A stretch of DNA of 60,978 nucleotides, the filler included, from Sphacelaria rigidula (lineage: Eukaryota), in NCBI GenBank assembly GCA_964200075.2. It is 6 parts of 6 records of this genome, joined end to end, with 100 filler letters (N's around TTAATTAATTAA, not from the genome) between each part and the next. Parts side by side here need not be neighbours in the genome. Positions count along the whole stretch, not along the records: positions 1 to 10,080 come from CAXNAA020007187.1; positions 10,181 to 20,260 come from CAXNAA020007188.1; positions 20,361 to 30,440 come from CAXNAA020007189.1; positions 30,541 to 40,620 come from CAXNAA020007190.1; positions 40,721 to 50,799 come from CAXNAA020007191.1; positions 50,900 to 60,978 come from CAXNAA020007192.1. One strand, given 5' to 3'. Position 1 is the stretch's first letter. Each line of letters begins with the position of its first letter. The notes beneath the pieces are model-generated. The model was given only the letters and a program-made list of their open reading frames with translations, searched no databases and was not told where the DNA came from. A program made the translations under genes and the position numbers. Of the stretch, positions 1-60,978 are shown in pieces.

Positions 1-1329
1 GGCGCTGTATGGCCATTTTTTTCGTGACACTTTTAGCTGGTTTTGGGGAGGGGCTATCGTAGAAAGTGTCAACAATTGAACATCGCCTTCGCATTTGTCA
101 GCAGCAAAATCAAGACCGCGCAGTGAGCTGTTGGCGAGTTGAACAAGGCACACATGTGGGCAAACGTCCTCACTGTCGGTCAGCTGTGCTCGACAAGTGC
201 AGAGGGGTGACCAAATCCCTGCGGTCATGCAACCCGTAACAGAGAGTTCCCTCGAAGGATGCATCTGTGTGAAGTGCCGGCGCAAGAATTTCCTTGTGAC
301 AAGGATGCATCCCTGCACAAGTACTTCACCGAGGGGGCTTGAAGAAATTAACGTAAACAATGGTTGGTGCTATGGAGATGCCACCTTCCCTAACGCTAAC
401 CCTAGCACTAACATCGACCAAGGCATACCGAGGACGCTCGGGCAAGGGGGGTGCAGTGTCGTAGCTAAAGCGTGCGTTACGAGAACTCGAATCGACGCCT
501 TTCGAGAGCTCAAATCGACGCCTTCGAGCCGACTTTGGACCAAACCACGTTCTGGACGACCTGGTTCTACTGCTCACCACTGCTCACCTGCCCCGAATCA
601 TGATTTTTCTCAGAACTTTCTTTCGCCTGAAACCAAGTCAAATTGAGTACCAATCGTTGTTCATGTACATTTCTTCAGGTCTACCAGTGTCACACTACAG
701 GCGAATGTATATATGCGTGCGCAGATGCATAAACTTGGACATATTGAGCGACTGGACGGCTGACGCGGTAGCAAACTGGCACCGGTCTGTACTGCGGTCC
801 TTTCTGGATCATGACCATCTGTAGTGCACCGATCGGCATACAGTCTGTTGAGCTGCGCACTTCATGGCGCACGGCCCTAAGCGCGCTGCAGCCGCTGCGA
901 GGCGTGAAACATCGCTCATAGGCTGTGCAAACCACAGTCAACAGTTCCAAGCCGCTAAATCTGGTGCTGTGCGCTGCAGCAGTGCGCACTAGGGGGCAAA
1001 ACGGTAAGATTTTGTTCCGAAAAAATGTTTTTTGCTTTTGGCGCAACACTGACTTCACAGGATCATCTCGGTGCCGGTGCTGCGCAGGTTAATAACTGTG
1101 AGTTAGCCCGCTGATTCGGTAAGGGCCTCGCGGAGGGATATTTCGGAACTGAAACGATTAAATCACTAATTTACCGCTTTTTCTTCTCAAGCGTATCCTC
1201 TACTCTCCATCTCACGAAAACATCGTTCTATGTAATTGGAGGCTCCCTCATCAGTTGTGTTTGTTCACGTCTGTTTATTTTTCGCGGAGGGCAATATAGT
1301 AAATCTGGAATATATACAGTCACTTTTAA

Positions 1330-1456
1330 ATGAATTAATTGAATAATTAGAGGTTGATTGAGGATGGATGGTTGGATGGCTGGATGGATGGTTGGTTGGA
1401 TGGCTGGTTGGATGGATGGTTGGATTGTATTTTTTTGGATAGAGGGGAAGACAGTG
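1330..1456 (-). repeat. (GGAT/GGTT)n microsatellite with a conserved flank; further copies at 8565-8666 and 8670-8822. Possible 3' tail of a non-LTR element
   Basis: All three sites share aattaatt...gattgaggatggatgg...tttt-(g/c)ga(c/t)a-ggg(g/a)aagaca. Confidence 0.55.
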
Positions 1457-1535
1457 TATACTTGCTCGATCGGAGCGGACAAAGCGATAACTCGCGCGCT
1501 TTTTCTCCCTTTATTCAACCCATGTCTATTATTTA

Positions 1536-1827
1536 CATGTATCATTTCACATGTTCACCACTTTTGCCGAGTTTTCTCTGGCAGCAAGGCATTTTTCCCC
1601 ACGCTTTTTTTTGCAGCGCACTGAAAAGGCATACTCGTACGAAGTACATTTTATACTTTCGACTTGCGTCACCCCCGGGAGGCCCGTACCAACCTCCCGA
1701 AGGGAAACCTTGCATATATATATATATATGTACATGTATCATTTCGCATTTTTCACCACTTTCGCCAAGTGTTTCTGGCTGCAAGGCATCTTAGCCCGCG
1801 CTTTCTTTTGCAGTGCACGAAGGAGGA
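1536..1827 (+). repeat. Diverged direct duplication of a ~95-bp unit (1536-1630 and 1732-1827)
   Basis: catgtatcatttc(a/g)cat-ttcaccactt-gcc-ag---tctggc-gcaaggcat-tt-ccc-cgcttt-tttgcag-gcac-aa-agg in both copies. Confidence 0.8.
1657..1712 (-). repeat. ~56-bp dispersed stem-loop repeat (second copy 4106-4161), probably the 3' end of a 5'-truncated LINE or SINE
   Basis: tttcgacttgcgtcacccccgggaggccc(g/a)taccaacctcccgaaggg(a/g)aaccttg nearly identical at both sites; internal hairpin cgggagg/cctcccg. Confidence 0.6.
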
Positions 1828-3299
1828 TCAGCGGTGTGTTACAATTCAGGTTTGGGTGTCATCTGATACCTGTGGCGCGTTTTCTTGCCATCGAAAGTCG
1901 CCGACACTGGCTCTTTTTTGCGGGGTGTCGATCCCGAACCACAAAAGCCTTTCCAAAATCGTCGAAAACTTCAAACAAGAGCCGCAAAAGCCCGCTCATG
2001 GCGGGGTATTTTTTTCACCGTGATTTTCTTTGCGTTCTCGATGATTTGGGAACACGAAGACGGTGGTTATGCAGCCAATGTCACGAGAACATGAGAGCAA
2101 AGCAGTTGAAAACAGCTGGACATTGCCTTGACCTAGTCAGCAGCAAACACAAATCGAATGATCTGAGATCCCTTATCATTTAGTTTTGACGCGAAGCCTC
2201 TACCACGGTCATATCTGCGTAATATATGCCCCAATTATGCAAACGTAACAATCCACAAAAAATGCATCGTGAAGAGTACTGAAGAATGTGTAGATTGATA
2301 TTAGAGGAAGGGGTCACAGTCACAGCTACAGCAGGGGAAGTCGCTGATGGCCCGGTGTGCATTGATACGGTGGATACCCACGGTGCGTGGCATTTTGTGT
2401 TTTCAACACCCTGCTGTTTGATGACGGCTAGATGGAGTGGGTACAGTGATCGTTGATCACGCAGGCTGCGACGGATCCTGCCGGCCTCATCATCAATCGT
2501 CGCCCAGTTATGGACGAACGTTCGAAGAAACCCAGCAAATAAGCATCGTTTATGATCCGCTACCATATATGTGAGGGTTATGAGCTGAACATTTCCGCTT
2601 CAAAAAGCTCGACAGTCGAAGATTGAGCTCCTGTCGCGCGCCCAGTAGGTAGTGCCGCGGACCCTTGCCGGCCTACCCGGCACTGGGGGCGACATCCTGG
2701 CACAGACAGTTCCATCACTACCGGGACGGCCGTGCACAGGCCGGCAGCCGGAATGGCTGTTGCACTGGTGTTCCCCTAGCGTTAACAGCTTAGACTACGG
2801 CCACACGAGGCTTTGCACGCGAACATTTCGGTGCTTGCCTCACTTCCACTTCGGCCATGTTCTGTGGATTATTTGATTATTTCACGATCTCACCGCCTGA
2901 TATGTATGTGTATGGAAATGTTTTACACTCTAGACGAGAGCGTTCTACAGTCAGTATACAATTAAAAAATATGTACTGTGCACAGGATAGAAGCTTTTGC
3001 CTTCTGCGACGTGCACAATACTCGTACAAAAATGGGAACTGCGCTCAGTATGACTTCAAGACAGTGTAGAAATCTCCACGCGGCATTAATTGTTACAACC
3101 GGCTTGCGCGCCATAGCGGCTGTGCTACCACACAACTTCGCTCAAGATACAGGCAGGAATTATAGCGGCAGAGGCGACCTATTACTCTTGCGTGCGCCAC
3201 CTAGGGCGAATGCACACCCAGCTGCAAAACCGACCGCTGTACTAGATGTGGCAGAGCGAGGGGTGGTACACCACGTACACGCAGACAGCAAGCAGTATC

Positions 3300-3337
<38 letters not shown>

Positions 3338-3612
3338 CTTGTACTGTCTACAAGTGTGACTTGAAATCCGCGCGCGCGGGGTCGGGCCGGCATTTAGAGA
3401 ACCCTGCACGACGTCGCCGTGTACTACCGGGACGCAACCTTATTTCAGTAGCAATCACTTGCGATGTGTGCTGTGATGGGTTTCGTGCGTGATGGTTTTT
3501 TTTCCACCTCCGCACACCGCCCGTGAAGCGAGCTCTTCGTGCTGGAAGTATCCACCGCTTTTCCCGCCACTCTTGGTCTGAGACAATTGAAACTGCCAAG
3601 TATGACAGTATT

Positions 3613-4033
3613 TAACAGTGGATTCTCGAAATTGTGGTTGAAAAACAAACGAGATTCAACTCAAAAGCCGTGCTTTCCCTGACCAAAATATATGACAAAC
3701 GACTTTCATATGGACCACCCCATCCCTCCCGATCTCCCTAAAACCATATCGGGGGATTCTTAGCCTTCCATTCTCCCAGAGGGTATGTGCGAAAGCATAT
3801 CTTTGCCTCGGTTTCGGGGTGAAAAAAGACGTTTTTTGTCCCCCAAAACGTGCTTTCGCACATACCCTTTGGGGGAACGGAAGGCTAGAAATCGCTCGAA
3901 ATAGTTTAAGGGAGGTCGGGAGGGATGAGGTGGTCCATAGAAAAGCCATTTGTCATGAATTTAGATCCGAGAAAGCACCGCTTCTGAGTTGAGCCTCATT
4001 TTGTCTCAACCCCTTCCTCGAGAATCCACTGTT
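3613..4033. mobile_element. Foldback MITE (AACAG-terminal family), palindromic over its whole length
   Basis: Ends aacagtggattctcga / tcgagaatccactgtt. Inner arms pair (ttcaactcaaaagccgtgcttt / aaagcaccgcttctgagttga; agggtatgtgcgaaagca / tgctttcgcacataccct). Related ends at 20188, 50736, 60915 and, more diverged, 40567 and 40772. Confidence 0.85.
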
Positions 4034-6387
4034 ATCTGCTGCAAGGTACATATTCTCCCACAAAATTGGCTCCAAAAATATGAAGAAGGAATAACACAGG
4101 TTTATTTTCGACTTGCGTCACCCCCGGGAGGCCCATACCAACCTCCCGAAGGGGAACCTTGTATTACATTTTGTGTTGTCCAGGGTGTGAAATTTTTACA
4201 GGCTGCTACATTGCACTATTTCACTTTGGAAATACGAGTCCTTGTCACCAGCCCCGCATTTTACAGGCCACGGCATTCGAAGCATGGTGTTTGATCGTGT
4301 TACATGGGTAGTGCTTCATGCAGGCTGTTGGTTCCTGTAATGCCTGTCTCAGCTAGATTGCGGCACGTAAGTGGCATGGATCTGAAGTCGACAACAACAG
4401 CCGTGTCGAGGTTAGCGCACCACGTAAGAGGAGGCACCTCTAGGATAAGGTTAGTTATTATTGGTTTTCATCCGTAGGATGGACCCGCCTCGATATTGTC
4501 CCGAAAATGTATCTCCGATACACTTGGATATGATGACGATCTCTCGAAAATATACCGATTCGTGGTATCTACCGAGATGCGTTGACAACATATCAACCAC
4601 CAGCCGTTGCGTTTTCCCTTCGTGACCTGCCAGGCGGTTGGAATTGGCCTGGACGAGGCGTTCCCACTTTGGGCTCTCAGTTCGCATGGTGTGGGAGGTT
4701 TAGAGTGGAGCACCATCGAAATCGGCCAGGTTTGTTCACACATTTGTACAGGAAGTTAGGCGACCGTTGAGGTGTTGAAAGTCCCGCCGATCTCACAAGA
4801 CACGACTGTCGGATACAGTGACGGAGTGTTGGTCCATCGGCCTTGGCCCTCCTGCAACTAAGCTGTCCTTGGACATACAGACACTCGGCAACACTGATGT
4901 TTGGCTACAAGTTAATTTTTGCAAGACTAGCAAGGCAGCCAACCGTCGCGTGCATGCGCCATCGCTGTATTGTTGTGGCGGCGGTTTGTTGCATGCCGTC
5001 GGTGACTGGCACACGAAGCATGAAGCGCGGGTACAACAGCCATCAGGAGTACTCTTGCGCCCTATCCGTAACATATACCAGGGTAAACGGGTCGTAGATT
5101 TTGAGGTGCTCCCGAAGCTGCGAGCAGTCAACGAAATTATTTCTCTCAAATTTGAACAGGTTCTGGCAATTGTGGGGCTTGGGGTGACCTTCGTTCAGCT
5201 ATGTGGATACAGCTGGCTTGTGAAGAAGATTGGGATGCTGGAGGTGCAGACGGGAAGCTCATACCTGAACTTGCCTATCATCTTGACGCTTCCCAACGTC
5301 AAGTATTTGAGCTGGAACGACGCCAGCCTGAAGATCGCTCTAGTGTTGTTTTTGACGATCTTCTGGTCGTGCCTGAGTGCGGTGAGTAGCGCCAAGTTAT
5401 GTTTCCACGCGAAGGTTTTCTGTCTCACGTGAAACAAGAGTCGGCCGCCACCCTGCTGATTCCTTTGACCGCACCCTTCTCATCGAGGTGGATGCGACTG
5501 TAGTTACCGGGGGAGAGATGGGTTGATCCCTGGAGACCACAGATTTGTCTCAAGGAAGAGGAGGGGTTCAACGTGTGACGGAAAAAGCAAGAATGAAAAC
5601 CTAATACTCGCGTCTTGTTACATGCTCCGGTTATAGGTCAATTAGGCATCACATTTCCCCCGGCCATGTAGTCAGAGAGTCTCCGATTCTGTTGGAGGTG
5701 TGTCCTTATGGCTAATGTTCGAGTGCTGAAAATTCAAACGTAGTGCAGAATTTTCTAGTTGCTGCGGCAAAGACAACTTTTCTGCATATCTTGGTGATCC
5801 CTCTACACTGTGGCAAGGGTCACCCCTCGAAGCAGTCTGAGCACCCATCTGTGCGAACTGAGATGTGACGTTTTGCTTGCAGTATGTGCAGTTGCAACTA
5901 GCTAGTTGTAACGACTGGAGATACCCCACGCCCCGCCCGCCTTGAAAGTTATCCTCATATTACACCGAAATCGTCGCCTGGGGAACGGCATTCGCGAATT
6001 GAAAAACAGATCAACATTGGAGTACTGCTGGCGTCGACGAGTCCTGTTCCTGCGCACCTGCGCGGCAAGCTAAGTGGGTTACTCCTCATGAGTCAGAGCC
6101 TCGGCAGAACTATCGGGCCTGCTTCGTGGGCAGCCATGTACGCGTGGTCGATCTCCAGCTCACCTACTGGCGGTGAAAGCATGCCGCTGGTTGATTTCCG
6201 TTTCGTATTCACCGTTTCGGCGCTGATCATGGGCGTAGTTGCCATGTTATCTCGCCGCGTACTTACTATGGAGACCATGATGAATGTGGTGGAGGCTTCG
6301 CCGCCAGGAAAAGTGTAGAGCAAGTCGGGACATGGACGCCATGGGCACACCTTGAGGTGGAGTGATTATGTTCTGTAGGGGTTGAGA

Positions 6388-7565
6388 TAGAGGTGTTCAT
6401 CTGAAAAAAAAACCCCGGTTATAACCGGTTTTTGGAGACCCCAAAAGGCGTTAACCGGTTACGGCTATGAAAAAAAACGGAGTTTTTTTTGCCGGTTTAA
6501 GCGGTTCACCGGAAAACCGGTTTAACCGGATAAGCAAGGGAAAACGCCTCCAAACCATTGAAACGCAGGTGAATTCGGCGTTGTTGTCGTATGTTTCGTG
6601 TGTGGTGGGTAATGGATACTCTCGAACACACCCATTGCCGGTAACGGCAAGGTTCAATCTCACACCTCCGTACTCCGCACTCCGCACCCGTGCAACACCG
6701 GTCGAACTTTACAGCACAGTGGCTGAAGACTGGTGACAAAGAGTTTTATGCGTGATAGGAAATGGTGTCCGTGATCACGTGAACAGCTGCTGTTCAAATC
6801 TTGCACCTATCCGTACCAAACACAGGGTGTCAAAAATCGAAAATAAAAACTTTACTCCGGAGTGTAGATAGTAGAGGGAACCTGAACCGTTCTTTTTCTA
6901 ATTTCTTTGTTATCGGCGATTTTCTCAGGCTCTTCCGCTCGTCACCGTCCATCACAGTGGGGATTCGAAGATTCTTGTATCCGGTTGAGTACAGATGAGT
7001 TTTGTTTTCGTTGAATGTGGAGCAGATACAAATATCTTCGAATCCCCACTGTGATGGACGGTGACAAGCGGAAGAGCCTGGGAAAATCGCCGATGACAAA
7101 GAAATTAGAAAAAGAACGGTTCAGGTTCCCACTACTATCTACTACTCCGGAGTATAGTTTTTATTTTCGATTTTTGACACCCTGTGTTTGGTATGGATAG
7201 GTGCAAGATTTGAACAGCAGCTGTTCACGTGATCACGGACACCATTTCTTATCACGCATAAAACTCTTTGTCACCAGTCTTCAGCCACTGTGCTGTGAAG
7301 TTCGACCGGTGTTGCACGGGTGCGGAGTGCGGAGTACGGAGGTGTGAGATTGAACCTCGCCGTTACCGGCAATGGGTGTGTTCGAGAGTATCCATTACCC
7401 ACCACACACGAAACATACGACAACAACGTCGAATTCACCTGCGTTTCAATGGTTTGGAGGCGTTTTCCCTTGCTTATCCGGTTAAACCGGTTGTTTGGTT
7501 TTCAAAATCACGCCTCCTTATCCGGTAACCGTTTTTTCGATTTTCCTATCCGATGAACACCTCTA
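6388..7565. mobile_element. Non-autonomous hAT-like DNA transposon with a ~470-bp internal inverted repeat
   Basis: TIR TAGAGGTGTTCATC / GATGAACACCTCTA; flanking 8-mers ggttgaga / ggctgagg (6/8, degenerate TSD); clustered subterminal AACCGG/CCGGTT; arms 6515-6981 and 7025-7492 are near-identical reverse complements. Confidence 0.85.
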
Positions 7566-7868
7566 GGCTGAGGTTGCCATAAAACATCGACTTGGGCCCG
7601 CATCTTGGCGAGTCACGAGGTGATGTAGCGGCTTGTTGAGTTTGATACGTTGCGAGGAAGAACAAAGTAGGATACGGCAGATGCTACTTCTTCCTTGTCT
7701 GAAAACGTAACCTGGGGTGGATGCAGTATCTCGGAACTTACGACACGGATAAGTATGATGCGTTGGAGTCAGGCTTTTGCTTATCATGCTAGCATGATTT
7801 CTGGCATAATTCCACCTCGATAGCATAAATAACGTACGAGCTGGGCCAGCCTAGAGGCGGATTTGAAG

Positions 7869-8156
7869 TTTGCAGGCCCTTGCTCTCGCCAATATTTAGA
7901 GTTGAACCCTGAAATTTGTCATGGACAATGCATAGGGCACGAAAAAATAATTTACAACTGTACCAAAATTTTATTTTTTATTTCTTCATGAGTTAAGGGC
8001 ATTTTACTGATACCTGAAAACTGTTAATGCCCTTAACTCATGAAGAAATAAAAACAACTCTTGGTGCCGCTGTAATTTTTTTTAGCGCCCTTTGTATTGT
8101 CCACACCAAATTTCAGGGTCCAACTCTAAATATTGGCGGGAGCATGGGTCTTCAAA
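7869..8156. mobile_element. Foldback/MITE-like inverted repeat (arms ~7869-8003 and ~8026-8156)
   Basis: ctcgccaatatttagagttgaaccctgaaatttg vs caaatttcagggtccaactctaaatattggcggg; tatttcttcatgagttaagggcatt vs aatgcccttaactcatgaagaaata. Confidence 0.8.
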
Positions 8157-8829
8157 AAGCTTGGTCGGCAGAAATTCGGAACAGTATTTCGCAGGTCACT
8201 CACGGGCCCACGTTTGGTTTTCGTGTATTAAAATTTTGTGTGGGCACCCTCTAAGGCATAATTAACAAAAAAATGTGGGTCAGGTTGCTTTTTTTCTTTT
8301 TTTTCACTGGTGTAGGGCGTTCTACCATGGTAACGACCATTTCTTCACGAGAAAGCCCCAACCTCCATGAAAAAAACAAAATGAAAGCCCATTTTTTATT
8401 TATTCGGCACTCTTTTGTGGTTCTCCACACCAAGAATCGTCGCCATCCGCTAAATGCATCGATCGGGAGTTTCATAGAGATTTCAGTACTGGCGCTATCT
8501 CCCTTAGGTATAGGAATATATTACTAGACATGGGGTTTAATCGACGAGATTTTTTTAAAAAATAAATAAATTAATTAATTAATTAATTCAAGATTGATTG
8601 AGGATAGATGGTTGGATGGTTGAGGATGGGTGGTTGGTTTTATTTTCGAACAAGGGAAAGACAGTGAATAAATAAATTAATTAATTAATTGATTGAGGAT
8701 GGATGGATGGATGGTTGGTTGGGTGAGATGGGTGGGGTGGGTGGTTGGTTGTGGTTGTATTTATTTTCGTCGTGGTTGGTTGTATTTATTTTTGTGGCTT
8801 GTTTTTTGGACAAGGGAAGACAAAAAATA

Positions 8830-9850
8830 TGATATTATAAGGGGTTGAACAATATACATTGGTTTGTAGTGGAGTTTTGAGGAAAAATAAACTTTGCTCT
8901 TAGGCCTTATCGTGTTTGGGGATGAATGGTTGTATTTTTATCTTTGGATAAGGGAGAGACAAAATGGAAAAAAAAAAATGGATAAAATAGACACTTTCCC
9001 GGTAGGAGAAGGTAACGACTTGCGCGGCTTTGAGGTGAAGGGCACATGAGGTACACCCTATTCAGATGATGCGGTGCGGTGATGGAGATGCCAAACAGAG
9101 CGACGTCACCGTAGATGGCATACATCGTGATATGTCGAGTAGGTGGAGTGATGGCAAAAAATTAACAGAGATCGCGGGGATTGGGCAGGTATGACGGAGT
9201 CCGTCGGAAACCACACATAAATTAGGAACGCCAAGTCGTGAGAAAGAGGTGAAACGGGGCATGGAAACCATAGGTTGCATCGCGGCTGAGGGCAAAACTT
9301 GGTGGGGCTGGTTCCGTGCGCATGAAATGGAGGAGGCGAGGTTGATGAGGCACACCGCCTTCATAGTACGTACATTCACCTATGCATGAAATCGTGGAAT
9401 AATTATAGCACGGTACAAAGGAGGGACCGAAATGCGGTGCATATATCTTTCACGATAATAGTGAGAAGGGAAAAATAGGAAGGAGAGACGAACCTAACAA
9501 TAAGGTGCCCCGTGAACAAATTGGTAAAGAAGGGAACGAACGACATGAGTTGACTCGATATTCTGGGGAAAATGCGAGAGAAATAGAAGACGGAAGAGCC
9601 CGGCATGAAATTTTTTATATAAGATGTCATGGAGGAAGAAATGAAGACACGACACGGAGTGGCGATTGCCGGATCCATGTCTGTAATCGGAGGATAGGTA
9701 GTCGTTTTCGGTATCTTTGTCGGTAATCCGAGGAGTAGGTCGTGGACGGAACCGAGAGGGGGAATGAGAGGAAAAACAACAATATAAAGGAACCATATGA
9801 CGATGGCACGGAGATATTTTCTCCCCAAAGCAAGAAAAGGACTCACGCAA
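8830..9850 (-). pseudogene. Possible decayed 3' end of a non-LTR retrotransposon
   Basis: Strand-biased, broken coding-like sequence with a Cys/His cluster (FCPQPRC...HLF across a frameshift), running into the (CCAT)n tail; no diagnostic RT motif seen. Confidence 0.3.
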
Positions 9851-10080
9851 CTGACAGACCCAGTTGATTTTAATTAAGCATCGAAAACACCAAAAGAAGG
9901 TGAGTACGGTACGAGCTGGGCCAGCCTAGAAACGGATTTATGCTCTAAAAGCAATATCTCATCGACACAAACGAGTTGGGCCGTGACCCGCACATCGTAT
10001 TAATCGTCCAACCAATGGGAATGTGCCCATCTGGTCAAAAGTTTGGGCCCACAATTTCTCGTTGATTAAACTCCATGTCT

Positions 10081-10180
10081 NNNNNNNNNNNNNNNNNNNN
10101 NNNNNNNNNNNNNNNNNNNNNNNNTTAATTAATTAANNNNNNNNNNNNNNNNNNNNNNNNNNNNNNNNNNNNNNNNNNNN
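10081..10180. other. Artificial 100-nt contig spacer (N-TTAATTAATTAA-N, stops in all six frames); identical spacers at 20261-20360, 30441-30540, 40621-40720 and 50800-50899
   Basis: Same N-run with central TTAATTAATTAA every ~10,180 bp; the flanking segments are 10,080 or 10,079 bp. Confidence 0.95.
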
Positions 10181-19664: not shown

Positions 19665-19679
19665 GGGGTTGGGGGGGAA

Positions 19680-47948: not shown

Positions 47949-48174
47949 TGCGACGAATATACGCCGTTACATTTAGTTGGTAGTGATTATATGGATAATG
48001 ACTGAGGGCACGGAGATTCTGGAGGGTTCTGAATAATGACCGGGAACACGGATGTGGTATCTGCAGGTCTAGCTGGTGCCCTAGAAGGGCACTCCTGAAT
48101 GATGAGAATTTTGTCAGGCTGGGGAGTCCCTCAACAGCAGTGATCCAACCGTGCCTCCACTGACTGGCGTCACA
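47949..48174 (+). repeat. 3' LTR (226 bp; ~30-bp indel relative to the 5' LTR)
   Basis: TGCGACG...CGTCACA followed by GTAC. Confidence 0.93.
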
Positions 48175-49599: not shown

Positions 49600-50052
49600 G
49601 TTGTTTATATGCTGAAAACACAGGATTTTACAAATTGGGGGTATTTTTTGTATTGGGGATGAAAACCCGGAGAAATCAAATCTTCGTATCCACACCAAAT
49701 CTTCGAAGTATGCTTCCATTTCTTCACCTGCTGCTTGTTATTGACAACTACAAATTTGGATGTCGATACCCGAAATGTCGGGGTCTTAAATTAAAAACCG
49801 ATTTTGGCGTCCGATCGGATTACCTAAATCCCCCCAAAATGGTTTTTAACCTAGGACCCCAACATTTCGATTATTAAAATCCAAATTTGTATGGCGTGTA
49901 GTAGTTGTCATTAGCTACCAGCAAGTGAACAAATGAAGGCATACTTCGAAAATTTGATGTGGATACGAAGATTTTATCTCTTCGCGTTTTCACCCCCAAT
50001 AGAAAATCCATTCCCAATTTGTAAAATCTCGTGTTGGAGGTGCAAACTAAAA
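49600..50052. mobile_element. Foldback element, arms ~49600-49762 and ~49878-50052
   Basis: gattttacaaattggg vs cccaatttgtaaaatc; aaatcttcgtatccaca vs tgtggatacgaagattt; ggatgaaaacccgg also occurs in the MITE end at 40607-40620. Confidence 0.8.
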
Positions 50053-52398
50053 ACATGCACGACGGTATGGAACTGCACTCGAGGAACAATGAAGGAGAAG
50101 AAATATGGTACACCTCGGAACCTACTTTGTGGTCTCGTTCCGGAGGGCTCGGACACCGAAGTAGGGTACAGCTGGAGACTTATTAGACGCTGGACAAAGT
50201 GTTGATGAATGCTCTACTGCCCTGTTGAGATCCCTGGGACGATGGGCGAGTGACCAGCATAGGGTTATGGTAGACATTCGGCATCCCCGATCCCAAGACA
50301 TGTCTTCACTAGATGTCATTACTCATCTCAAATCCAAGCGAGCCTACTTCGAGCTCCTAGTTACGTATATATCGTATTGTTCAACGCCTATAAATCCACG
50401 TCATCTGACAAGATAGCGACCAGAGACGTACTTGTAAAACGTATCAGCTGGCTCGTGGTTGATCCACACCGCTCAAATATTCGCCAAAGATATACATTTC
50501 TAGTACCCGCCGGTCAGTACTCAGAAACAGTAACTCAGCAATTGCAAGTCCCTGTCACATAACATATGCCTCTTATGGGTAAAGCAATTGCAGACTATGA
50601 CAAGATACGAGAATGCTGCACCCATACCCTCTCCCGCACCACAAAAAGTCCAGACCAAACAATTCTGAACCTTGAAGGATTCGGGCACATGAAGGTGCAC
50701 GGGTACTCACCGAGACAGATGCAAAAGCACTACATAACAGCCGATTTTCGAAAATGGGGTTGAAAAAAAAAATGAGGTTCAACTCAAAAGCCGTGCTTTN
50801 NNNNNNNNNNNNNNNNNNNNNNNNNNNNNNNNNNNNNNNNNNNTTAATTAATTAANNNNNNNNNNNNNNNNNNNNNNNNNNNNNNNNNNNNNNNNNNNNC
50901 AAGCAGAAGTCGGAATAGGAGTTGTAGCCGGGACGGGAGTTAATAGGTTGCTTCTTCCCATTTTTTGTTGGTTTTCCTCCCCCCCCCCCCCCGCGCGCTT
51001 TCCAAAGAATATTCTATCATTATCGAAAAAGTCCCTGGTATCACGTTCACACCCCCGCTCTGCGTACAGTTGAAAAATGAGGGAGGAAAACTGAAGACCG
51101 GGAGAAAGAACACGCACGCACGTTGTTTTTTTATTTCCGCGTGTGGTGGCGAAAAACATACTTAATGAGACAAAACTAGAATGCTGCGTTTTGTATTGGA
51201 AAATAAAATGTACAAGTTCTAACGGTGGATTTGATGGCTATACAGGAGGTGGACCTTAGCTAAATCATGGGTGTTTCCAGAACGAGGGCATATTTGATGC
51301 AGGTCGCTATTCTTTTTTGCAAAAATGTCCCTATACTACAGCCTCATGCCCACGAAAGCGGGGCACTACAGAGAGATGGCACCTTCTCTTGGTCTTATAC
51401 TGCCTGTTGAGATACTTCCTACAGGTCCGCTTACTGTAGTGTACTTGGAGAGAATCCACCCTAGACGTAATTTATCCCTCATACCGTCCTTCCCACGTCC
51501 GGCCGGCTCTCCCTTTCCCTCCACCTCTCCAGTGGACGTGCTTGTTTGTATTGTTGGGTACCCCAGAAGTCTAAGGTTGTATCCCCTGGGAGTACCTTCG
51601 CTTGTCCGCGATAACTTTCCCGGGATTTCCTCTACCCCCCCCCCCCCCCCCTTGCCTTCCCTTCTGTTTGACGTACGCGACCCTTTTGATTCGTCGTGTT
51701 CTGCGTGTTCATCTTTGGCTCTCTTCGGTTGACCGGGTGAAAACCCTCGCAGTTCGAAGGAGAGTATCTGGACCTCGACGGCATAAGGGACAAGGTAAGA
51801 TGATGTTACTGGACACAAGGCAGCACGAACTGTTTTTTTCTTGTTTCTCTCGGTGCTTCTCATCGCACGGGTAGGCTACTCGTACCTGTGTTGATTCGAG
51901 AGTCTGCAGGCTCGTGTTTGGTCTTTGCTGATTTTTCACCAACCCGTCGTGCACCAATTCGAGGTAGTTGTCATCACACCTCGTGCGTGTATTAATAGTA
52001 GGTGCGCCCACCCCACGCATTGAACATAGCAACGCATAAAAAAATATGCCACCGTCATATCCAACAGCACAACAGCAGAGGTAGCTGCTGGGTTTTGAGG
52101 AAATGCAAGGATGCTTGAAGTTTTCATGTGGTACAGCAGCAGTCGAACATTTGCATTAACTCTTGTGATTATTCTCGTTACTGGCGCTCATGTACATGCC
52201 CATCATCTTGGATGTTCCCTCCAATGTGTGCGAATCCGAGCCACAGGGCACTTTCACAACTACCGCGCGGTACACGAATAACATTCCCTCGGATTCGCAC
52301 ACACGGAAAGCAGTGGTCTTATGACTATGGCATGCATGATGATGAGTACCCCCTTCCACCCTTTCCCCAAATCAACACATATGTGCACATACTCGCAG

Positions 52399-52802
52399 CT
52401 GAATGCCGAAGAATACCTTACGCTGAAGGACTTCGAGGACGATCTCACCCTCTTGACTGTAGAAGCTAAAGAAGTGTTAGGCAGGCAGAAGTCCACCCTC
52501 GCCCGCCTCGAGGTCTTGTCTGCCCAGGCGGCCGCCGCCGTACCAACCACGAGAGGCCGCTCCAACAGCGGCGCCGGCCCCGGCGCCGTCGCCGCCGCCG
52601 CCGGAGAGGGTGCGAGCGCAGGGGCCTCGGGTGGGCCGACGCGCGCCCCTGGGTTCGGGTGTGAAGAGGAGCATGAGGCGAAGAGGGCGGCGGCGGCGGC
52701 GGAGGTAGAAGTGGACCGTGCTGCGAACGCCGTGGACCGCGCGGCCAGTGCCCTAGACAAGGCGTACTTCTTGCGCGATGCTGCCATGTCGTACCTTCAA
52801 AG
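52399..52802 (+). CDS. ATAD2: Internal exon of an ATAD2/Yta7-like AAA+ bromodomain protein gene (bromodomain C-terminal half); upstream exons not found in this contig
   Basis: cag acceptor and ag|gt donor; LNAEEYLTLKDFEDDLTLL...AYFLRDAA matches bromodomain helices B/C; phase fits the next exon. Confidence 0.7.
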
Positions 52803-54195
52803 GTGGGTGATTTCATTCTTGTTTCATCTAGGCGTGTCAGTGTTGAGATGAGGCATGTTGCACGATTTGATAATCGGGGTTTGTACCGTCCTGATTGGTT
52901 CCCTGTCTTGTTTCGAAAGTCTTGTTGTTTTTGCGCGGAGAGTATATGACCACAGGCATAAGTTGGCATTCTCGTGACGTTGGAGTCTGTCTCTTGTTCG
53001 CGATGAATCAGGCACCGCTTCCGTTTCTCTATTTTATCACGTGAAATCTCTGACCCCAGTTTCCTCCCGCTTCCGTACTTGCTGTATTTGCCAACAAGGG
53101 ACACAGCCAGACGCTCGCAATGCCTCTTGACCTTGAGAGTATTAGGTTTCCAGTACATGAGCAAAACAAAGAAGTCTCGTATGGTGCAGTACTAATTTTC
53201 TATTTTTTGCGGCGAATACTGACCTCATGACATTAACGAAGGGTAAGCGACCGGGCAGTTGGAGACGAGATCTGACATGGCTTTGTCGGGAAAGCGTACC
53301 CAGGTATCCATGCAAAACCTAGTTGGTTGGCGCTATAGCAATCAAGACCTGGTGTTCGTGGCCGTCCGAGGCTTCAAGGTAAAATGACTCGGAGTCATCA
53401 GTACGTCATTTCGAGACTGCATTCTTGGGTACAAATCACTTCGAAATCCTAAGTATCCCGGGACTCCTTTGTTTTTTCGGAAGATCCGACCACCCTCGCA
53501 CACATGTATTGCACTTGAAATAAAAGCACCAACGCCCAGCTGGGGAGAACACAGGGACCGCGCTCACGCCAAGGCCAAGTGACGCGTCAACGAATGACAG
53601 AAGCCTCCACTCCTGCATACCCTGTACAGCCAAGACTGAAAGCGGCGTGGTCGAAGGCAAAAGCCACCAGCACCCACCGTTGTACACTTGGAAAACCTGA
53701 GTGCGCAACTCATGGATTCGGCTGGCAAACTATCCGCATGATGTCTGTCCGTGATCGTTCTCGACTCAATATCCCCCGAGACACGTCGCTGCTGTCGTGA
53801 TATCGTTCTGGAAGTCGCGTCTGTCGGCTAGAAGACTGCACACAGATGGGCATCTATATAACTGTAAGGTGCCCCGAGGGATTATAGTTCTATGTCCTGT
53901 CCTGCCCTGAACTGTACTGTACTGTGCGGTGCGGTGCGATGCTGTCTCTGTTGCGCTGTGTACCGCGATTTGCCGTGGTGTATTGGCCTGCTTTTTTGTA
54001 CCCAGTGTGAATTCTGACCCGCAATGACTGCACGTCATTTTTCGAGTGCGTGGTTGATCATGATGGCATGCTTCATTACCTGCGCTAACGACCAGCCAGC
54101 GACATGAAACTTTTGTCGTTTGTGATCCCCGGGCTCTGAGGGGCCCACATAGTCCCCTCCCCATACCGTAATTCTTACTCGATTTAACCCAACAG

Positions 54196-54499
54196 CTGCG
54201 TGAGCCGCCTGGGCTACGACCTCGAGGCCAAGTGCAGAGATATCGCCGGGCGACGCAAAACCGGTGGCAGCAGCACGAGAAAGAGATGCGCCGAAGTCGC
54301 TGCCGGCAATGAGCGGGGTGCGAGCGGTGGCGGTGGTGGGCAGGGAGCCGGGGCCAGTGGGGCAGACAACGGCAGCAGATCTTCGCCAAATTATACATCC
54401 GAGAGCGTCATCGTTGATATCTACGGTCAACCAGCTCAAGGAGGCGCCAGCACCGCGAAGGAACGGAGCACGAGGGCGTCGCGGAGGACAGCAAGTTCG
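54196..54499 (+). CDS. ATAD2: Exon of the ATAD2/Yta7-like gene
   Basis: aacag acceptor (phase 2) and gtaagg donor; LGYDLEAKCRDIAGRRK resembles the ATAD2 post-bromodomain helix (LxxDFExxCxEIxxxRK). Confidence 0.7.
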
Positions 54500-54711
54500 G
54501 TAAGGAGTTGCGTGCGGGCTTTTGGTGCTTGGGGAACTTGTGTGTTGTGTGTAGAACGGGGGAACTGGCCTAGGTCCGTGGGGTTTCGTTTTTTCCAGCG
54601 TGTGCCGTGCGGCTCGTGCAAGGGCGTTGAAAGATTGTGCTGCGCTCTCTTGTTTCTCTGCGTCTCTTTTTTGGCGCACGAGTGTGACTTGTGGCACTCG
54701 CACTCGCTAGG

Positions 54712-54954
54712 CTGCTCGTTGGCCGTAAAATTAATAGGGCGAGCACTCGAGTCACTGCTCGTTGCGGAAAAAATTAAAAGAGCGAACACTCGAGTCGTTG
54801 CTCGCTGTGGGAACAAACTAATAGGGCGAGGACTCGAGTCATTTCTCGTTGTAGAACAAAGTAATGACTCGAGCACACGAGTCATTGTTCGTTGTGTTTT
54901 CAAAAAACATTCACGAGTGCTCGTTTCGACGAGTAATGACCCGTCCGATGTGTG
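54712..54954. mobile_element. Intronic element with ~46-bp tandem subterminal repeats (gagcactcgagtcattgctcgttg); related end at 59688-59770; CACTA/CMC-like
   Basis: About five CTCGAG-centred units; termini cgtccgatgtgtg (to 54954) and catacgtcggacg (from 59688) are near reverse complements. Confidence 0.5.
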
Positions 54955-55625
54955 AAGTGTTTGCATGGTACTAACCACGTCTACGAGTTGCAGGCCCGGG
55001 TGGGGGGGGGGGCGTACCCATGATATTGTAGGCAGCCATAAGGCCATTGTCCTTGCATCCCTGCCCAGCCGGTATGGAGCACGCCGGGTTTTCGCCGTAT
55101 CAGGGTCACAATCACCAAGCGCCAAGCGCCGTCATGTGTTCGGCGAGTCATATCAAGGGCGAGCTGCATCCTGCTAAGATTGTTCGGCCCGAAGCGTACT
55201 AATTATCTTGCGTATGAATGGCAGCCTCGAATGACTTGCTTCATTTTCCGGTATCGCCGCTTGCAGAGAATGCCACGGAATACTCTGTCTCATGGGTGTT
55301 TTATCTTTGAATATTACATAGTGCGATCACCCCCTTTGCGCGGATTTCAGATTTTCCACCCTGGACAAAATGATCTATATCGACCACAATCATGATGACA
55401 GTAAAAAAAGGCGATCAAGAAAATACGGCAGCCTGGTTCCCTACCTTGCGCAGTGAGAGGCGTGTTACACAGCGTCGTTGACAACCAACGCCAACCCCTG
55501 AAAGGGACACGGGGCAGGAGAGGGGGGTGATCACGTTGTACCACCATGGAGGGTTCTGTTTGCGAGTGATGACGCAGTGTGCCCTACCTTATTTCTCGCG
55601 CGCGACCAAAACTACAAATTCTCAG

Positions 55626-55727
55626 GACGGGAGACTAGTTCAGCTGGGCGACAACGGCAAGCTCCTGGTACAGGGTACGGAGGTGGAGGTGACCGGTGTG
55701 CAACCCCGCAAGCGTGCCGCCCGAGAG
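55626..55727 (+). CDS. ATAD2: Probable exon of the ATAD2/Yta7-like gene
   Basis: ttctcag acceptor, gag|gtga donor, 102 nt, phase 0/0, GC-rich codons (DGRLVQLGDNGK...RKRAARE). Confidence 0.55.
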
Positions 55728-56235
55728 GTGATCACTTGCGTAAAATACACGACGGTGCAGTCGTCGGCGTGACATGCCATCGTAGTAGAAATGACTCCGC
55801 AACTGTTGTGGCCAGTTGTGGTGGTGAAGAGCACTGCCTATGGCGTGTACCGCAGTTTCCCCCGTTGAGCTAACTGTAGCTGTCATTTGTGCTCGACGTG
55901 AACGGAACAGGGTGAGCGCAGTTGTCCCTCAGCGGTTTTACCTCAGACCCTGTGCAAGAAAAGGGCGGCTCAAGCACAGGATTGACAAGTATGTTATTAA
56001 CTCCTCTCCGAAACGCGGTAGACACGACTATTGCTCTACGTACGATCAATCTGTTCGCGTCTTCTTCCGCTTCCTTGATATTTACGTTTCCTGTCGTAAT
56101 TTTGTACTACCTTCCCGCCGTGCCGTACCGAACCGCCGCGCGCCGCGTCCACTCCGCCTCCCCCTCCCCCAACTCCCCCCGCGGAATTTCGACACGGAAC
56201 ACGCGCTACACAAGCCTCATCAAGAGCAGCAACAG

Positions 56236-57840
56236 GTCATCGACCCTCCCGCAAAACGCAGACTTGTTCCCGCCGGTGACGAATCGACTCGCGGTACGTG
56301 GCAACAAGGAGTGCGGAAAGGGGACGAAGGAGAAGAAAAGGACCGTGAAGAAGGGCATGGGCACAGCACGGCCACTGCGGGCGCCGCGGGTACGCCAACA
56401 ACACAGCGTTCGTTGTTAGCACCGATCGCGCTTGAAAACGGGGGTTCTTCTCTGAGCGAAGTGACTGGCGCAGGGGTAGCAGCAGGGATAGAAACCGACG
56501 GCGAGATCAGGGATGATAAGGTAGCTGCAGCAGCGGCCGAGAGTGCCACGGGCTCTGCCGTCACGACGGCTTCACCCCCCGCAGCTACGGTCGCTCACAA
56601 TGGTCTTCCCGCAGTGGGCGGCGATTCTGATGGTTCAAGCCCTAGCGCAGTGAACGAGTCGGTTAACCTACTTTTGGGTTCTCCGAGCAAGGACGGCAGC
56701 ACCGACGTTTCGCCAACACGAAAACCTACCGCAGTAGTAGCAGCAGCGGCGGCAGCAGATATTCGTGATGGCAGCGCGTGCGGCGCGATGTCACCAAGTG
56801 CGAGCAACCATGACTCCGGTGCTGCTGCAAAATGCAGGATTACGGCGTCGGAAGTGAACAGTGCTGCATCACCCCAACCTATGGAAGTGGTAGCGACGGA
56901 GACACCGCCGGACAGTGCACGTGACATTCCCGCGTCCGAGGTCGAAGCATCAAAAGTTGTTGACACATCCCAGGAGAAGGTAATGCATGACGCGAACACG
57001 ATACTGGAGTTGAACGGGGCGTCCCATGACCACAATCCGGAAACGCCGCCAGTGGATCTTTCAGCGCAAGGTACTGAAACCGGCGAATCGGCCCTCGGGG
57101 GCGATGCAACGATGACGGGGTCGAGGGTGGCTGGAGATTTGACCGTTTCGTGGAAAGATGATTGGTCGAACGGCAATGACAATGTCGAACTCGCAGTGCT
57201 CAATAGTGGCGGTGCAGCAGCGACAGCATCAACGTCAGAGACAGCTGTAGCGGCAAAAGATGGGGCGGCGAGAGGCGAGGACGTGAATATGTCGTCGGAC
57301 GAATCAGCTCATACACCGACGGGGACCGCCATGGCGCCATCGCAGGCGGCGGCAGCGCTAGCCTTTCCTCCTCCGCAAAACTCGAACACCAAGACAGAAG
57401 GGATGGCCAAAGGGCAAGCCGGACTGAAAGAAAAACCTGCGGAAAGGAAGGAGAAGCGCGAAACTGCAGCACCTACCGCCGTTGCCTCGGTAGTGGAAAA
57501 AGAGGCGCAGGAGCACGCAAGAACTCGAGCGGCGGCGGCCGCGGCCGCGGCAAGGGCGAAAGCCGCTGCAGATGCAGAGGAGAAAAGGAAAGCGGTAGCC
57601 AAAGAGCAACAGGCCAAGCGCGAGTGTGAAGAAGCTTGCTCTCGTCTACTGGAAGGCAAAAGCCGCGTGTGCAGTGGCACCCACGGTTGGTCGGTGGAGC
57701 AGCTTCTGGCTCTGCGAGGGGGCGTATTGGAGCTGGGTGCGGCGCTGTGCGGACGAGCGATGCCGGGGTCGAGGTCGAAGTCGGCAAGTGACGCCGTGTA
57801 CGTCCTGCTACGGCATATAGATTACCGCGTAAGTTCTTGA
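56236..57840 (+). CDS. ATAD2: Terminal exon of the ATAD2/Yta7-like gene: disordered A/S/E-rich linker and C-terminal domain
   Basis: caacag acceptor in frame; PPAKRR NLS-like; SGTHGWSVEQLLALR matches the ATAD2/Yta7 C-terminal TxGxxVEQL motif; TGA at 57838-57840. Confidence 0.72.
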   Translation, partial: VIDPPAKRRLVPAGDESTRGTWQQGVRKGDEGEEKDREEGHGHSTATAGAAGTPTTQRSLLAPIALENGGSSLSEVTGAGVAAGIETDGEIRDDKVAAAAAESATGSAVTTASPPAATVAHNGLPAVGGDSDGSSPSAVNESVNLLLGSPSKDGSTDVSPTRKPTAVVAAAAAADIRDGSACGAMSPSASNHDSGAAAKCRITASEVNSAASPQPMEVVATETPPDSARDIPASEVEASKVVDTSQEKVMHDANTILELNGASHDHNPETPPVDLSAQGTETGESALGGDATMTGSRVAGDLTVSWKDDWSNGNDNVELAVLNSGGAAATASTSETAVAAKDGAARGEDVNMSSDESAHTPTGTAMAPSQAAAALAFPPPQNSNTKTEGMAKGQAGLKEKPAERKEKRETAAPTAVASVVEKEAQEHARTRAAAAAAAARAKAAADAEEKRKAVAKEQQAKRECEEACSRLLEGKSRVCSGTHGWSVEQLLALRGGVLELGAALCGRAMPGSRSKSASDAVYVLLRHIDYRVSS

Positions 57841-59249
57841 AGGCAAAAAATCACGGCGCAATTATTGCTTTCCTGACAGCCGTTTTATTTCATTAATGAA
57901 GCAAGGACAATGATGCCGAGTTGGACTCGGAGCTCTCGCCGGACAGTTGTTTTAGCTTTGCGCAGTTTTGATGGTTGATGGACTCCGTACTTTTTTATTT
58001 CGCGTTTTTTCTTCAATATTTCACATTTTGGACCTGATGTCTTCTATGGCGTGTGTGGGTGGGATTGTTGGGCTGCTTCCAAGAGTTGTAGCGTGGGGGA
58101 AACGCGATGGCCACGTTCCCGTCTTCTGGGAGGACGAATCCCATCTAGTTTATTTTCTTGTTGCGAGAGACCAGACGAGGGTGGGTATAGAATGGATTTG
58201 CTGGGAAGGGTCGAAGACACCTTTGTGCTCTCCCCTTCCAGTCCCATGTTTGGTGTCAGCATTGCCCAGAAGCGCTGATACACACAGCTTCCAGCAATGG
58301 GCTAGACGAGGGGGGGTAGTGGGTGATAATGTGTTCTGCAATGGGTTTCCATGGGTTTGCGACGTCGTTTTTTTTTTCGTCACATACACCGTTTTCACGT
58401 CGCATTTAGAGGGATATATATATATATATATAGTGACGCTTTTTCAGGGATGAAGGAGGGCTGTGTGTGAGGGGCAAACCAGGTCAACAAGGTCAGAGTG
58501 TGTGGCCGGCAGAGAGACAAGCACCGAGAACAAAAAACTACCCCAACCCGCCACAAGAACAAGAGAAACGAAGTCCAGGAATTGAAGGTGATTGTGTCCA
58601 TCCCCAGCCACATCAACGCCGAGATGCTGATGCTCTGGCGATATTCATTCCGGGCTGTCATCCAAACAGTCGGCGATCACCCGGATATGAATAAGGGGTG
58701 GGGGAAGCGGTTATTTGAAGTGTTTCCTATTTTCTGACGGGCACGATTAATGATAATCGTATGTACTGGAAGTCGTGCATGTGTGGCGAGTCTGTTGTAG
58801 CGCAGCAGGGGTGAAAATAAGCCCTGAGATGGAGGTTGGGGGCCGGGGGCGAAGGAATGCCATGGGTGCATCGAACAAGTGAGATGAACCGTGATTTGGT
58901 CGGCATGCTTGTCAACGTTTGAAAATGGAAAACATCATTTCTTGAAAAGCAGGGTGACCTCCCGGTGTTGACTTCTCGGCATTGATGGTCTACCCATTTT
59001 CATAGCTTGAGCCTTTTCATCCAGAGTGGATCATATGACCGGCTAGCTTGAATAACGCCAAGTCCTCGTGCCTGGGACACATCATGAAGAAGAGGGTAGA
59101 ACCATTAACACCACGGCCGTGCCATGAATTGTGCAGTCGAATTTTGAAGATATCGCATACGTGAGGGGGAGAGAATCTATTGACAGGTGTGCCGCCCGCC
59201 GTAGCAAAATGCTCACGATGACGGTTATCCGAAGCCTGTACATTCACCT

Positions 59250-59640
59250 CAGTAGCCTCGCTTGAAGATCACAAGCCCCAGCAAAATCATATCAGGTTGC
59301 GACAATTTGGGCGAGACATTCATCCGCTGTCGGCGACATCGCCACGAGTGTTGCCAACATCGCCGGAGTGTGTCGGTCACACAAAAGTATCGCATGCATC
59401 CGCTGCGTCCCTCCCCTTGTCGCCCGCACATCCTCACCTCCTCATTGCACGATCCATTGCGGATAACCGCGCTCCCTCCGAGTACTCTGCTCTCGCTCGT
59501 TCCGGAATCCTCGGAACGGTATACTGTGTGGTACTTTTCGGGTGCTGCATCATGTTCAAATATGAGGGAATCCGATGGAAGCGGTTTCCGCCACCTGGCT
59601 GGAGTCGTTACAAATGTGCGAAAGGAGATATACATTAGTT
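59250..59640 (-). pseudogene. Possible pogo/Tc5-like DDE transposase remnant
   Basis: RTFVTTPA...KPLP...LIF, VTD.....H and NVSPKLSQPD...FKRGY loosely follow the DDE_1 motif order. Confidence 0.3.
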
Positions 59641-60978
59641 TAGAGACGGAAGCAACAATGCGCGACAATGTAAGCTGGGGAAAGTTTCATACGTCGGACG
59701 AGCACTCGTTGGCCGTAATAAATCATGGAGCGAGCACTCGAGTCATTGCTCGTTGTGGAAAAAATTAAAAATTAACCCCTGTGTGCAGTGTTACGCCCAG
59801 TTTAGGATCACGTTTTTCATCACCACCCCCCAAAACGCGACTTGGTGAAGTGAAATAAGTCGGTAAGGCAGAATAATGACAACTATGCTGATACACAGCT
59901 GTAGTACTTATCCTACACTATCCCTCCGTCGAAGTCCGGTTCAATTCCATCCAGTACAGCACACGTACGATCGATGGATATCCAGGAAAAAAGCCACGGA
60001 AATCTGTACAAGCCCAGAAGCCATTTTCCAACATGGCCGACCTAGACGCAATCGCAGATAACTCGCGCTGCACGATTGGCAGCCAGCTGAAACTTGAGAG
60101 TCAAGAAGCAATTATTGCTAATAGCCATGGTTGAACAACAAACTCGCGCTCATTAGTTCTCGGGATGGTGCGGAAATCGCAAAATATAAACTCACTATAC
60201 ATCAACCTTTTCATGTACGGCAAGGGTATGCGCAGCCGTGACGTCGAGGGCTGATAGAGATGAATTTCAGCTGCACAGAGCAATTTGATTTGTCTTTGCA
60301 GCTGCTGTGTGTATTGAGATATTTTCATCTCGGTGGGGGGTGTTGGGATACATGACATGTGGTGGAAAAGCGTATCACATACTCCGGATTACGAAGAAAG
60401 TCGGTATCCAAAATAAGCTGGCGGCCATTGCGCCGCGTTTAGGTGTGTTCGTATTGTAGTCGTGAATACATTCTCCCGCCCTTTTTCATGGAAACAACAG
60501 CGTTGCCCGTCAGCAGAGAAGATATTTGAAGCAGGCGCATGCCGTTATAGCTGCGGTGGCGCGCGAGGTCGCTGTCCAATACATAGGGTGCAAACACACG
60601 CATACTGTCGTCAGCGACGCCGTGACCCCTCCGCGTCCAAGGTCAGTTCTCATTGCAAACAAACAACGCAAAAAAAGGACTCTACGAGCTGAGCCAGCCG
60701 ACAGTGTTCTGTAAATGTATCCGGGCCGAGTGGTGGGTAATTCGAAGCGTTGGGCGCTGACATATTGACGTAATATTTCCATCATCACAACGCACAATCT
60801 TACTGGAGATGCCAAGAAAAAACATGTATGCACTTGGAGCGATTTGAAGTTTCTCCAAAAACGAGAAAAACGCTATAATTCCGTGAAAATAAATGAAGAC
60901 GTGGGGATCGCTACTAACAGCCGATTTTGAATTTTGGGGTTCATACAAAATATGGGGTTGAAGTGGCATATCTCTCTT

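Follow-up and report, generated by a model that had tools for sequence, protein, structure and literature searches.

Units and spacers

The window, which is the whole stretch of DNA that was analysed (60,978 nt), consists of six segments (hereafter units) joined by five identical spacers of 100 nt. The unit lengths, measured from their coordinates, are 10,080, 10,080, 10,080, 10,080, 10,079 and 10,079 nt. They descend along the window and agree to within 1 nt at 10 kb, which bears out the four segments of 10,080 and two of 10,079 described in an earlier note on this DNA. Units 1 to 6 lie at 1..10080 (GC 0.475), 10181..20260, 20361..30440 (length with an internal gap counted in), 30541..40620, 40721..50799 and 50900..60978, respectively. 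Spacers 1 to 5 lie at 10081..10180, 20261..20360, 30441..30540, 40621..40720 and 50800..50899. A spacer period of 10,180 bp had also been reported; this was found for the first three intervals between spacer starts (10081, 20261, 30441, 40621 and 50800), and the last interval is 10,179. The first base (1) and the last base (60978) of the window are both unit ends.

Spacer sequence and published linkers

The spacers are not plain N: spacer 1 is made of 44 N, the 12-mer TTAATTAATTAA (10125-10136) and a further 44 N, and the other four are identical to it (5/5 spacers). The 12-mer is identical to its reverse complement and carries TAA in frames 1, 2 and 3, giving a stop in all six frames. Eight copies were found in the window (0.00 expected from shuffles), and this pattern of copies, taken with the near-equal unit lengths, cannot be produced by chance. 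Unit 1 has three natural copies of the 12-mer as well (8571, 8575 and 8677), without flanking N and within an AT-rich local repeat.

Linkers of this type are described in two sources: the contig concatenation linker NNNNNCACACACTTAATTAATTAAGTGTGTGNNNNN (PMC3019230) and the scaffold/contig linker NNNNNCATTCCATTCATTAATTAATTAATGAATGAATGNNNNN (bioRxiv 10.1101/2023.02.08.527609) are both built on the TTAATTAATTAA core, and the purpose given for both is to provide six-frame stops and so to avoid chimeric genes. The window spacers resemble the published linkers in the palindromic core, the N flanks, the identity at every join and the purpose, whereas the published linkers carry 5-N runs together with CACACAC/GTGTGTG or start-site flanks. 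The window spacer is without these and has the 12-mer alone between two 44-N runs, which makes exactly 100 nt. Exact identity to either of the two published linker strings was not found, the 12-nt core being the common part. Judged by its sequence, the window spacer is a variant of the published six-frame-stop linker convention.

Gap inside unit 3

The eleventh N run of the window is a 10-N gap within unit 3 (21360..21369; 999 + 10 N + 9071 = 10080), which is flanked by copies of a local repeat and has a C17 run and a (CA)n tract just downstream. Unit 3 is a gapped scaffold made up of a 999-nt and a 9,071-nt contig, not a single contig and, because the gap is counted in its 10,080 nt, it was whole records (scaffolds) that were sorted. 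The 10-N run fits the kind of a scaffold gap of unknown size, from which the five spacers differ in their central designed 12-mer and in the length-sorted units that they join; the uninterrupted N run of an evidence-backed scaffold gap was found at 21360-21369 only and in none of the five spacers. The earlier reading of the window as joined contigs therefore stands in so far as separate units were artificially joined, but the units are scaffolds or records, with seven contigs in six units.

Gene and repeat content of the units

There are 210 stop-to-stop ORFs of at least 90 aa, of which 194 were searched against Pfam; the 16 left out of this set were nine ORFs antisense to the unit 2 retroelement, its separately scanned integrase ORF and six satellite ORFs. 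Shorter ORFs (55-89 aa) were also searched where they lay no more than 2 kb from a unit end, 142 out of 162 in all (of the other 20, 19 lie in the satellite and one touches a spacer). Among the scanned ORFs only retroelement domains passed. The sub-threshold matches were MFS_1 at 5902-6315 (E 0.0035), TMEM171 and DUF5830, and a match to the disordered-repeat family PT covers a GGAT microsatellite. No Pfam family reached its curated cut-off among the ORFs of at least 90 aa in unit 1, and no Pfam-recognisable exon was found in the scanned ORFs lying up to 2 kb from the unit ends. The earlier note had explained missing upstream exons of a host gene by the separate contigs; no truncated host gene could be named from the ORFs scanned. 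Searches with Rfam (gathering thresholds) and ARAGORN yielded no match and no tRNA, respectively.

On the + strand of unit 2 lies a Ty3/gypsy-like retroelement with an 880-aa ORF (11554-14193), a reverse transcriptase (RT, 14197-14754) and an integrase (15211-16929); an LTR pair was looked for in this element and was not found. In the Protein Atlas, the 880-aa ORF resembles retroviral aspartyl-protease clusters (0.93), a match that serves as a lead only. A short chromovirus-like LTR element in unit 5, with LTRs at 43437-43698 and 47945-48177, carries zf-CCHC, Integrase_H2C2 and chromo domains. A low-complexity 491-aa ORF (34728-36200) lies in the GC-rich block of unit 4 (34-38 kb), which is followed by a satellite array of a ~113-nt repeat (38206-40565) that nearly reaches the 3' end of the unit. 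In unit 6, a 666-aa ORF (55840-57837) has a small family of relatives, no Pfam match and a Protein Atlas score of 0.76, too low to be informative. A viral origin of the long orphan ORFs was considered and dropped, no IMG/VR pattern match having encoded a relative. Six long palindromes are present in the 60 kb, and three of the long palindromic elements are in unit 1 (3613-4034, 6515-7492 and 7869-8156).

Source genome

Repeat families are common to the unit pairs 1-2, 1-3, 1-5, 2-3, 2-5, 2-6, 3-6 and 4-5. As repeats are thus common across all six units, the units come from one genome. Relatives were searched with the retroelement proteins of units 2 and 5 only, and most matches were nameless. 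In one search, all seven organism-bearing names among the 120 matches listed of 309 were brown algal (six Ectocarpus, one Sphacelaria). The second search gave 15 of 15 such names among 35 matches (13 Sphacelaria, one Scytosiphon and one Hapterophycus), with identity up to 87%. The common repeats and the retroelement proteins of units 2 and 5 agree with a single-source brown-algal (Phaeophyceae) genome, and the source is probably a brown alga.

Unit ends and junctions

Unit ends were scored as lying in a repeat when at least 30 of the last 100 nt belonged to a repeat found also in another unit. Five of the 12 ends did so, whereas for 100-nt windows in the unit interiors the rate was 2.4% (binomial P 5e-6); the test is not fully independent, since four of the five positive ends match one another in pairs. 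The remaining seven ends (six, if a weak copy at the 3' end of unit 6 is counted) have no repeat common to another unit in the 60-kb sample.

The 3' end of unit 2 (20179-20259) runs into the palindromic repeat family, that of unit 3 (30377-30425) lies within a ~45-nt dispersed repeat, and unit 5 has repeats at both ends (40724-40774 and 50736-50799). The weak copy in unit 6 (about 60911-60962) is of the palindromic-repeat terminus. Units 2 and 5 run, at their 3' ends, into one and the same terminus of the palindromic element, of which a full copy is present in unit 1 (about 3605-4040). The continuation of this element (unit 1, 3685-4100) was looked for in the 500 nt at the start of units 3 and 6 and was not found there, matches of 9-11 nt only being obtained (E at least 0.46), so the repeat entered by the left unit is not carried on at junctions 2 and 5. 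At junction 4, the satellite of unit 4 breaks off 55 nt short of the unit end, and unit 5 does not take it up again. A single repeat is entered from outside by both the 3' end of unit 4 and the 5' end of unit 5, with stops 3-6 nt apart. Such paired, repeat-entering ends are the pattern left by assembler breaks.

The same two ends match each other in inverted orientation across spacer 4, over 51 nt (90%). Taken alone, this match could represent the two arms of one foldback element. It was rejected as evidence of linkage, since two scaffolds entering the same repeat from outside, tail to head, give such a match. It is very improbable that units 4 and 5 flank a single foldback element on its two sides and are hence true neighbours. 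A bridging contig was sought by scanning metagenome_contigs with two queries, one taken from the 3' end of unit 1 (28 nt) and one from the 5' end of unit 6 (30 nt); neither gave a match in this collection, where such DNA is unlikely to occur.

The sorted lengths, the ends in repeats and the state of junctions 2 and 5 all speak for independent assembly units on either side of a linker that stops translation in six frames and is identical, with its flanking N, at every join.

Origin of the joins

Assemblers and archives commonly list records from longest to shortest. The window resembles such length-sorted draft assembly output in that successive lengths drop by 0-1 nt and ends fall in dispersed repeats. 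The window is very probably a technical concatenation of six independent, length-sorted records of one draft assembly with a fixed 100-nt separator, and we infer that the units are physically non-adjacent in the genome. Six records of a fragmented eukaryotic draft assembly would have been taken in length order, longest first, and strung together with the separator N44-TTAATTAATTAA-N44, in which the N runs would mark the break and the palindromic 12-mer would halt translation in six frames, letting no ORF or gene call cross the join. The records would end at the points where assembly halted, in most cases some tens of bases inside dispersed repeats, and the order, orientation and adjacency of the units would hold no genomic information.

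As to the maker of the join, we infer that it was most likely made when whole records were packed into the window, because a record end falls exactly at each limit of the window; a slice of a deposited pseudomolecule is less likely. In that case the depositor would have concatenated leftover scaffolds by length into a public 'chrUn' or 'unplaced' pseudomolecule, from which the window was cut, and the units would still be unlinked. Linkers with a TTAATTAATTAA core are a long-standing convention of depositors and annotators for building pseudomolecules (PMC3019230; bioRxiv 10.1101/2023.02.08.527609), which speaks for a join of this kind. Those published linkers nevertheless have 5 N per side and extra flanks, not N44, and an arbitrary slice would rarely have both of its limits on unit ends. 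We consider a depositor-made join unlikely.

Two further readings would give the units a genomic order. The window could be one real scaffold of six ordered and oriented parts, with each 100-nt block standing for a gap of unknown size that linking evidence supports. The conventional length of such a gap is 100 nt, which is the length of the blocks, and the inverted match across spacer 4 points the same way. An engineered palindromic stop 12-mer does not stand in the middle of a real gap, however, nor would the parts of a scaffold descend in length within 1 nt; the window's genuine gap is written as 10 plain N, and the repeats entered at junctions 2 and 5 are not carried on across them. A single scaffold is thus highly unlikely. 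The nearly constant segment lengths would also suit a continuous sequence cut into tiles of about 10,080 nt with spacers inserted, but such tiling expects equal tiles and one odd remainder, not four segments of 10,080 followed by two of 10,079. Arbitrary cuts would fall in common repeats in about 2.4% of cases, against the 5/12 ends seen. Equal tiles and continuity were not found: the unit 4 satellite is not resumed in unit 5, the palindromic element is not carried on at junctions 2 and 5, and none of junctions 2, 4 and 5 is continuous. To fixed tiling we attach almost no credence.

Use of the window

The concatenation of length-sorted records is a packaging artefact, not biology, and each of the six units is to be analysed separately. 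The earlier note held that any system built across a spacer is an artefact; the six-frame-stop linker, the sorted lengths, the unit ends in repeats and the broken-off repeat at junctions 2 and 5 support this, and it applies to any operon, gene model, repeat pair, synteny or system that extends over a spacer. Distances and strand relations between units are meaningless, and genes or elements cut at a unit end were truncated by assembly, not by biology. As the window is eukaryotic, and probably brown algal, a prokaryote-style reading of ORFs and operons is inapplicable.

Palindromic elements and fragmentation

The breaks may be non-random. No fewer than three units break off 50-80 nt inside one and the same terminus of the ~430-nt palindromic element: units 2 and 5 at their 3' ends and, as a weak case, unit 6 at its 3' end. 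A high-copy foldback/MITE-like family is a possible, if somewhat doubtful, candidate for a leading cause of the fragmentation of this brown-algal assembly, and it may be an undescribed element family.

Layout of the joined records

All N runs and all blocks between them were enumerated across the window. The six assembly records joined there (units 1-6) were found at positions 1-10080, 10181-20260, 20361-30440 and 30541-40620 (units 1-4, 10080 nt each, including an internal 10-N gap in unit 3) and at 40721-50799 and 50900-60978 (units 5 and 6, 10079 nt each), separated by five 100-nt spacers starting at 10081, 20261, 30441, 40621 and 50800. The segment lengths claimed in the earlier note (four of 10,080 and two of 10,079) were exact on this enumeration, and its 10,180-bp spacing held for three intervals, but the fourth was 10,179. 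Concatenation, as an observation, was confirmed, and its interpretation as separate units joined together was supported. A length-sorted list of very many records is the only possible origin of six 10-kb lengths that descend in order and differ by no more than 1 nt. The first and last bases of the window were exact unit ends, which points to a packing of whole records rather than a slice of a longer molecule; packing of the window is probably the step at which the units were joined.

Unit 3 was composed of 999 nt, a run of 10 N (21360-21369) and 9,071 nt, i.e. 10,080 in total, and is therefore a gapped scaffold, with the gap included in the length sorting. The window thus held six records and seven contigs: the description of the units as contigs stands in so far as they are separate assembly units, but they are records or scaffolds, not all of them contigs. 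One local repeat was present on both sides of the gap (region 21281-21460) and also formed the 5' end of the unit (20361-20408), and a C17 homopolymer with a (CA)n run was located downstream of the gap (21424-21460). The gap region is a typical hard-to-assemble spot.

Spacer sequence

The five spacers were identical, each consisting of 44 N, TTAATTAATTAA and 44 N. TTAATTAATTAA is its own reverse complement and carries TAA in each of three frames, and therefore provides stops in all six frames. Eight copies were counted in the window (0.00 expected from shuffles): five were the spacer cores, and the other three (8571, 8575 and 8677) lack flanking N and belong to a local repeat in unit 1 that is AT-rich, and are for these reasons natural. 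Rather than plain N, each spacer is a linker designed to stop translation in all six frames, a detail not given in the earlier note. The 12-mer occurs in the full text of 31 papers that also mention contigs. Compared with the contig-linker convention described in two publications (PMC3019230; bioRxiv 10.1101/2023.02.08.527609), the spacer is a variant, in which N on either side of the bare core brings the length to exactly 100 nt.

Unit ends and continuity across the joins

The six units were compared by all-against-all BLAST. Shared repeat families connected all of them (links 1-2, 1-3, 1-5, 2-3, 2-5, 2-6, 3-6 and 4-5), which indicates that the units come from one genome; bases in repeats common to several units amounted to 2.1%. 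A unit end was scored positive when at least 30 of its last 100 nt lay in a repeat common to another unit. Five of the 12 ends were positive, versus 2.4% of the interior 100-nt windows (binomial P 5e-6, in a test that is not fully independent: 4/5 positive ends match one another pairwise). Units 2 and 5 were 96.9% identical over 64 nt at their 3' ends, and both ends aligned to the start of a palindromic (self-reverse-complementary) element of ~430 nt, complete in unit 1 (about 3605-4040); the 3' end of unit 6 carried a weak copy of the same terminus (77% over 53 nt). For unit 3, the 3' end fell inside a dispersed repeat of ~45 nt, also found in units 2, 3 and 6. Stops a few tens of bases inside repeats are assembler behaviour.

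Over 51 nt, the 3' end of unit 4 matched the 5' end of unit 5 in inverted orientation (90% identity). As the flanks of a single foldback element, these two units would be true neighbours, and the inverted match over spacer 4 was considered as linkage. This was rejected: the same picture arises from two scaffolds ending in one repeat family, tail to head, and units 4 and 5 enter one repeat from outside, each breaking off within 3-6 nt of a common point. We consider the single-element explanation very improbable. In the BLAST between units, unit 5 showed no resumption of the ~113-nt satellite that unit 4 carries at 38206-40565. The remainder of the ~430-nt palindrome (3685-4100 in unit 1) was absent from the first 500 nt of units 3 and 6, where the best matches were of 9-11 nt only (E at least 0.46). 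When a bridging contig was sought in metagenome_contigs, 0 matches were obtained, and such DNA is unlikely in that collection. For none of the junctions is there any support for continuity. The sorted lengths, the designed spacer, the ends in repeats and the lack of continuation at the tested joins bear out the earlier note in that the units were joined artificially and listed by length. The six-block arrangement does not reflect biology, and is useful only as a reminder that every unit has to be read by itself.

Retroelements in units 2 and 5

Unit 2 carried a Ty3/gypsy-like retroelement with long open frames (11554-16929, + strand), with Pfam matches to RVT_1 (14197-14754, +, E 3e-21) and to Integrase_H2C2 and rve (15211-16929, +). 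An 880-aa ORF upstream of the reverse transcriptase (RT) had no Pfam match and resembled retroviral protease clusters only in Atlas (0.93), which is a lead only. An LTR pair was not detected within the 10-kb scaffold. Unit 5 carried a short (~4.7 kb) chromovirus-like LTR element (43437-48177), with LTRs of ~260 nt (43437-43698 and 47945-48177, about 90% identical), Pfam matches to zf-CCHC (gag zinc knuckle) and Integrase_H2C2, and a chromodomain match just below the Pfam cut-off. Because no RT was detected among its ORFs of at least 90 aa, this element is probably internally deleted, judging from its sequence.

Among the first 120 of 309 matches to the unit 2 integrase, the relatives with organism names were six Ectocarpus and one Sphacelaria, most matches being nameless. 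The unit 5 pol fragment had 35 matches (up to 87% identity), also mostly nameless, the named ones being 13 Sphacelaria rigidula, one Scytosiphon and one Hapterophycus. For both proteins, the organism-bearing names were brown algal throughout among the matches listed, and a brown alga (Phaeophyceae) is therefore the probable source of the window.

Other coding content and repeats

The character of the window is eukaryotic. ORFs were sparse, and no match to Rfam (gathering thresholds) and no tRNA (ARAGORN) was found in the window. The Pfam scan covered 194/210 ORFs of at least 90 aa and 142/162 ORFs of 55-89 aa located no more than 2 kb from a unit end. With respect to host-gene exons, it gave only retroelement domains and sub-threshold matches in the scanned ORFs. 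The earlier proposal, that concatenation would explain why a host gene (unnamed) lacks its upstream exons, is plausible in general, because every gene that extends to the end of a record is cut short by assembly.

A GC-rich block of unit 6 contained a 666-aa ATG-started ORF (55840-57837, +), rich in Ala, Ser, Thr and Pro. It had no Pfam family and no relative in IMG/VR. A word-indexed search returned the identical protein only, and an exhaustive search returned 11 relatives (E 8e-39 to 1e-11), whose alignments fell mostly in the C-terminal ~130 residues; Pfam families were also absent from 6/6 tested relatives. By sequence comparison, the ORF probably represents a genuine gene restricted to its lineage. 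A 491-aa open frame (34728-36200, +) lay in a GC-rich (0.56-0.58) block of unit 4 where both strands carry overlapping ORFs; the frame was of low complexity (rich in Ala, Thr, Pro, Ser and Arg), with no Pfam match and no IMG/VR relative, and its protein-coding status is uncertain.

Six long palindromic elements were present in the 60 kb (3613-4034, 6515-7492, 7869-8156, 26887-27546, 29527-29998 and 49617-50035), with arm identities of 69-95%; that at 6515-7492 was about 980 nt long, with arms 94.6% identical. Units 2 and 5 have the terminus of the 3613-4034 palindrome at their 3' ends too, and unit 6 has a weak version of it there. These elements look like a foldback or MITE-like family. The satellite array of unit 4 (38206-40565, ~2.4 kb) had a repeat unit of ~113 nt with higher-order periods of 245 and 362, and stopped 55 nt short of the end of the record.
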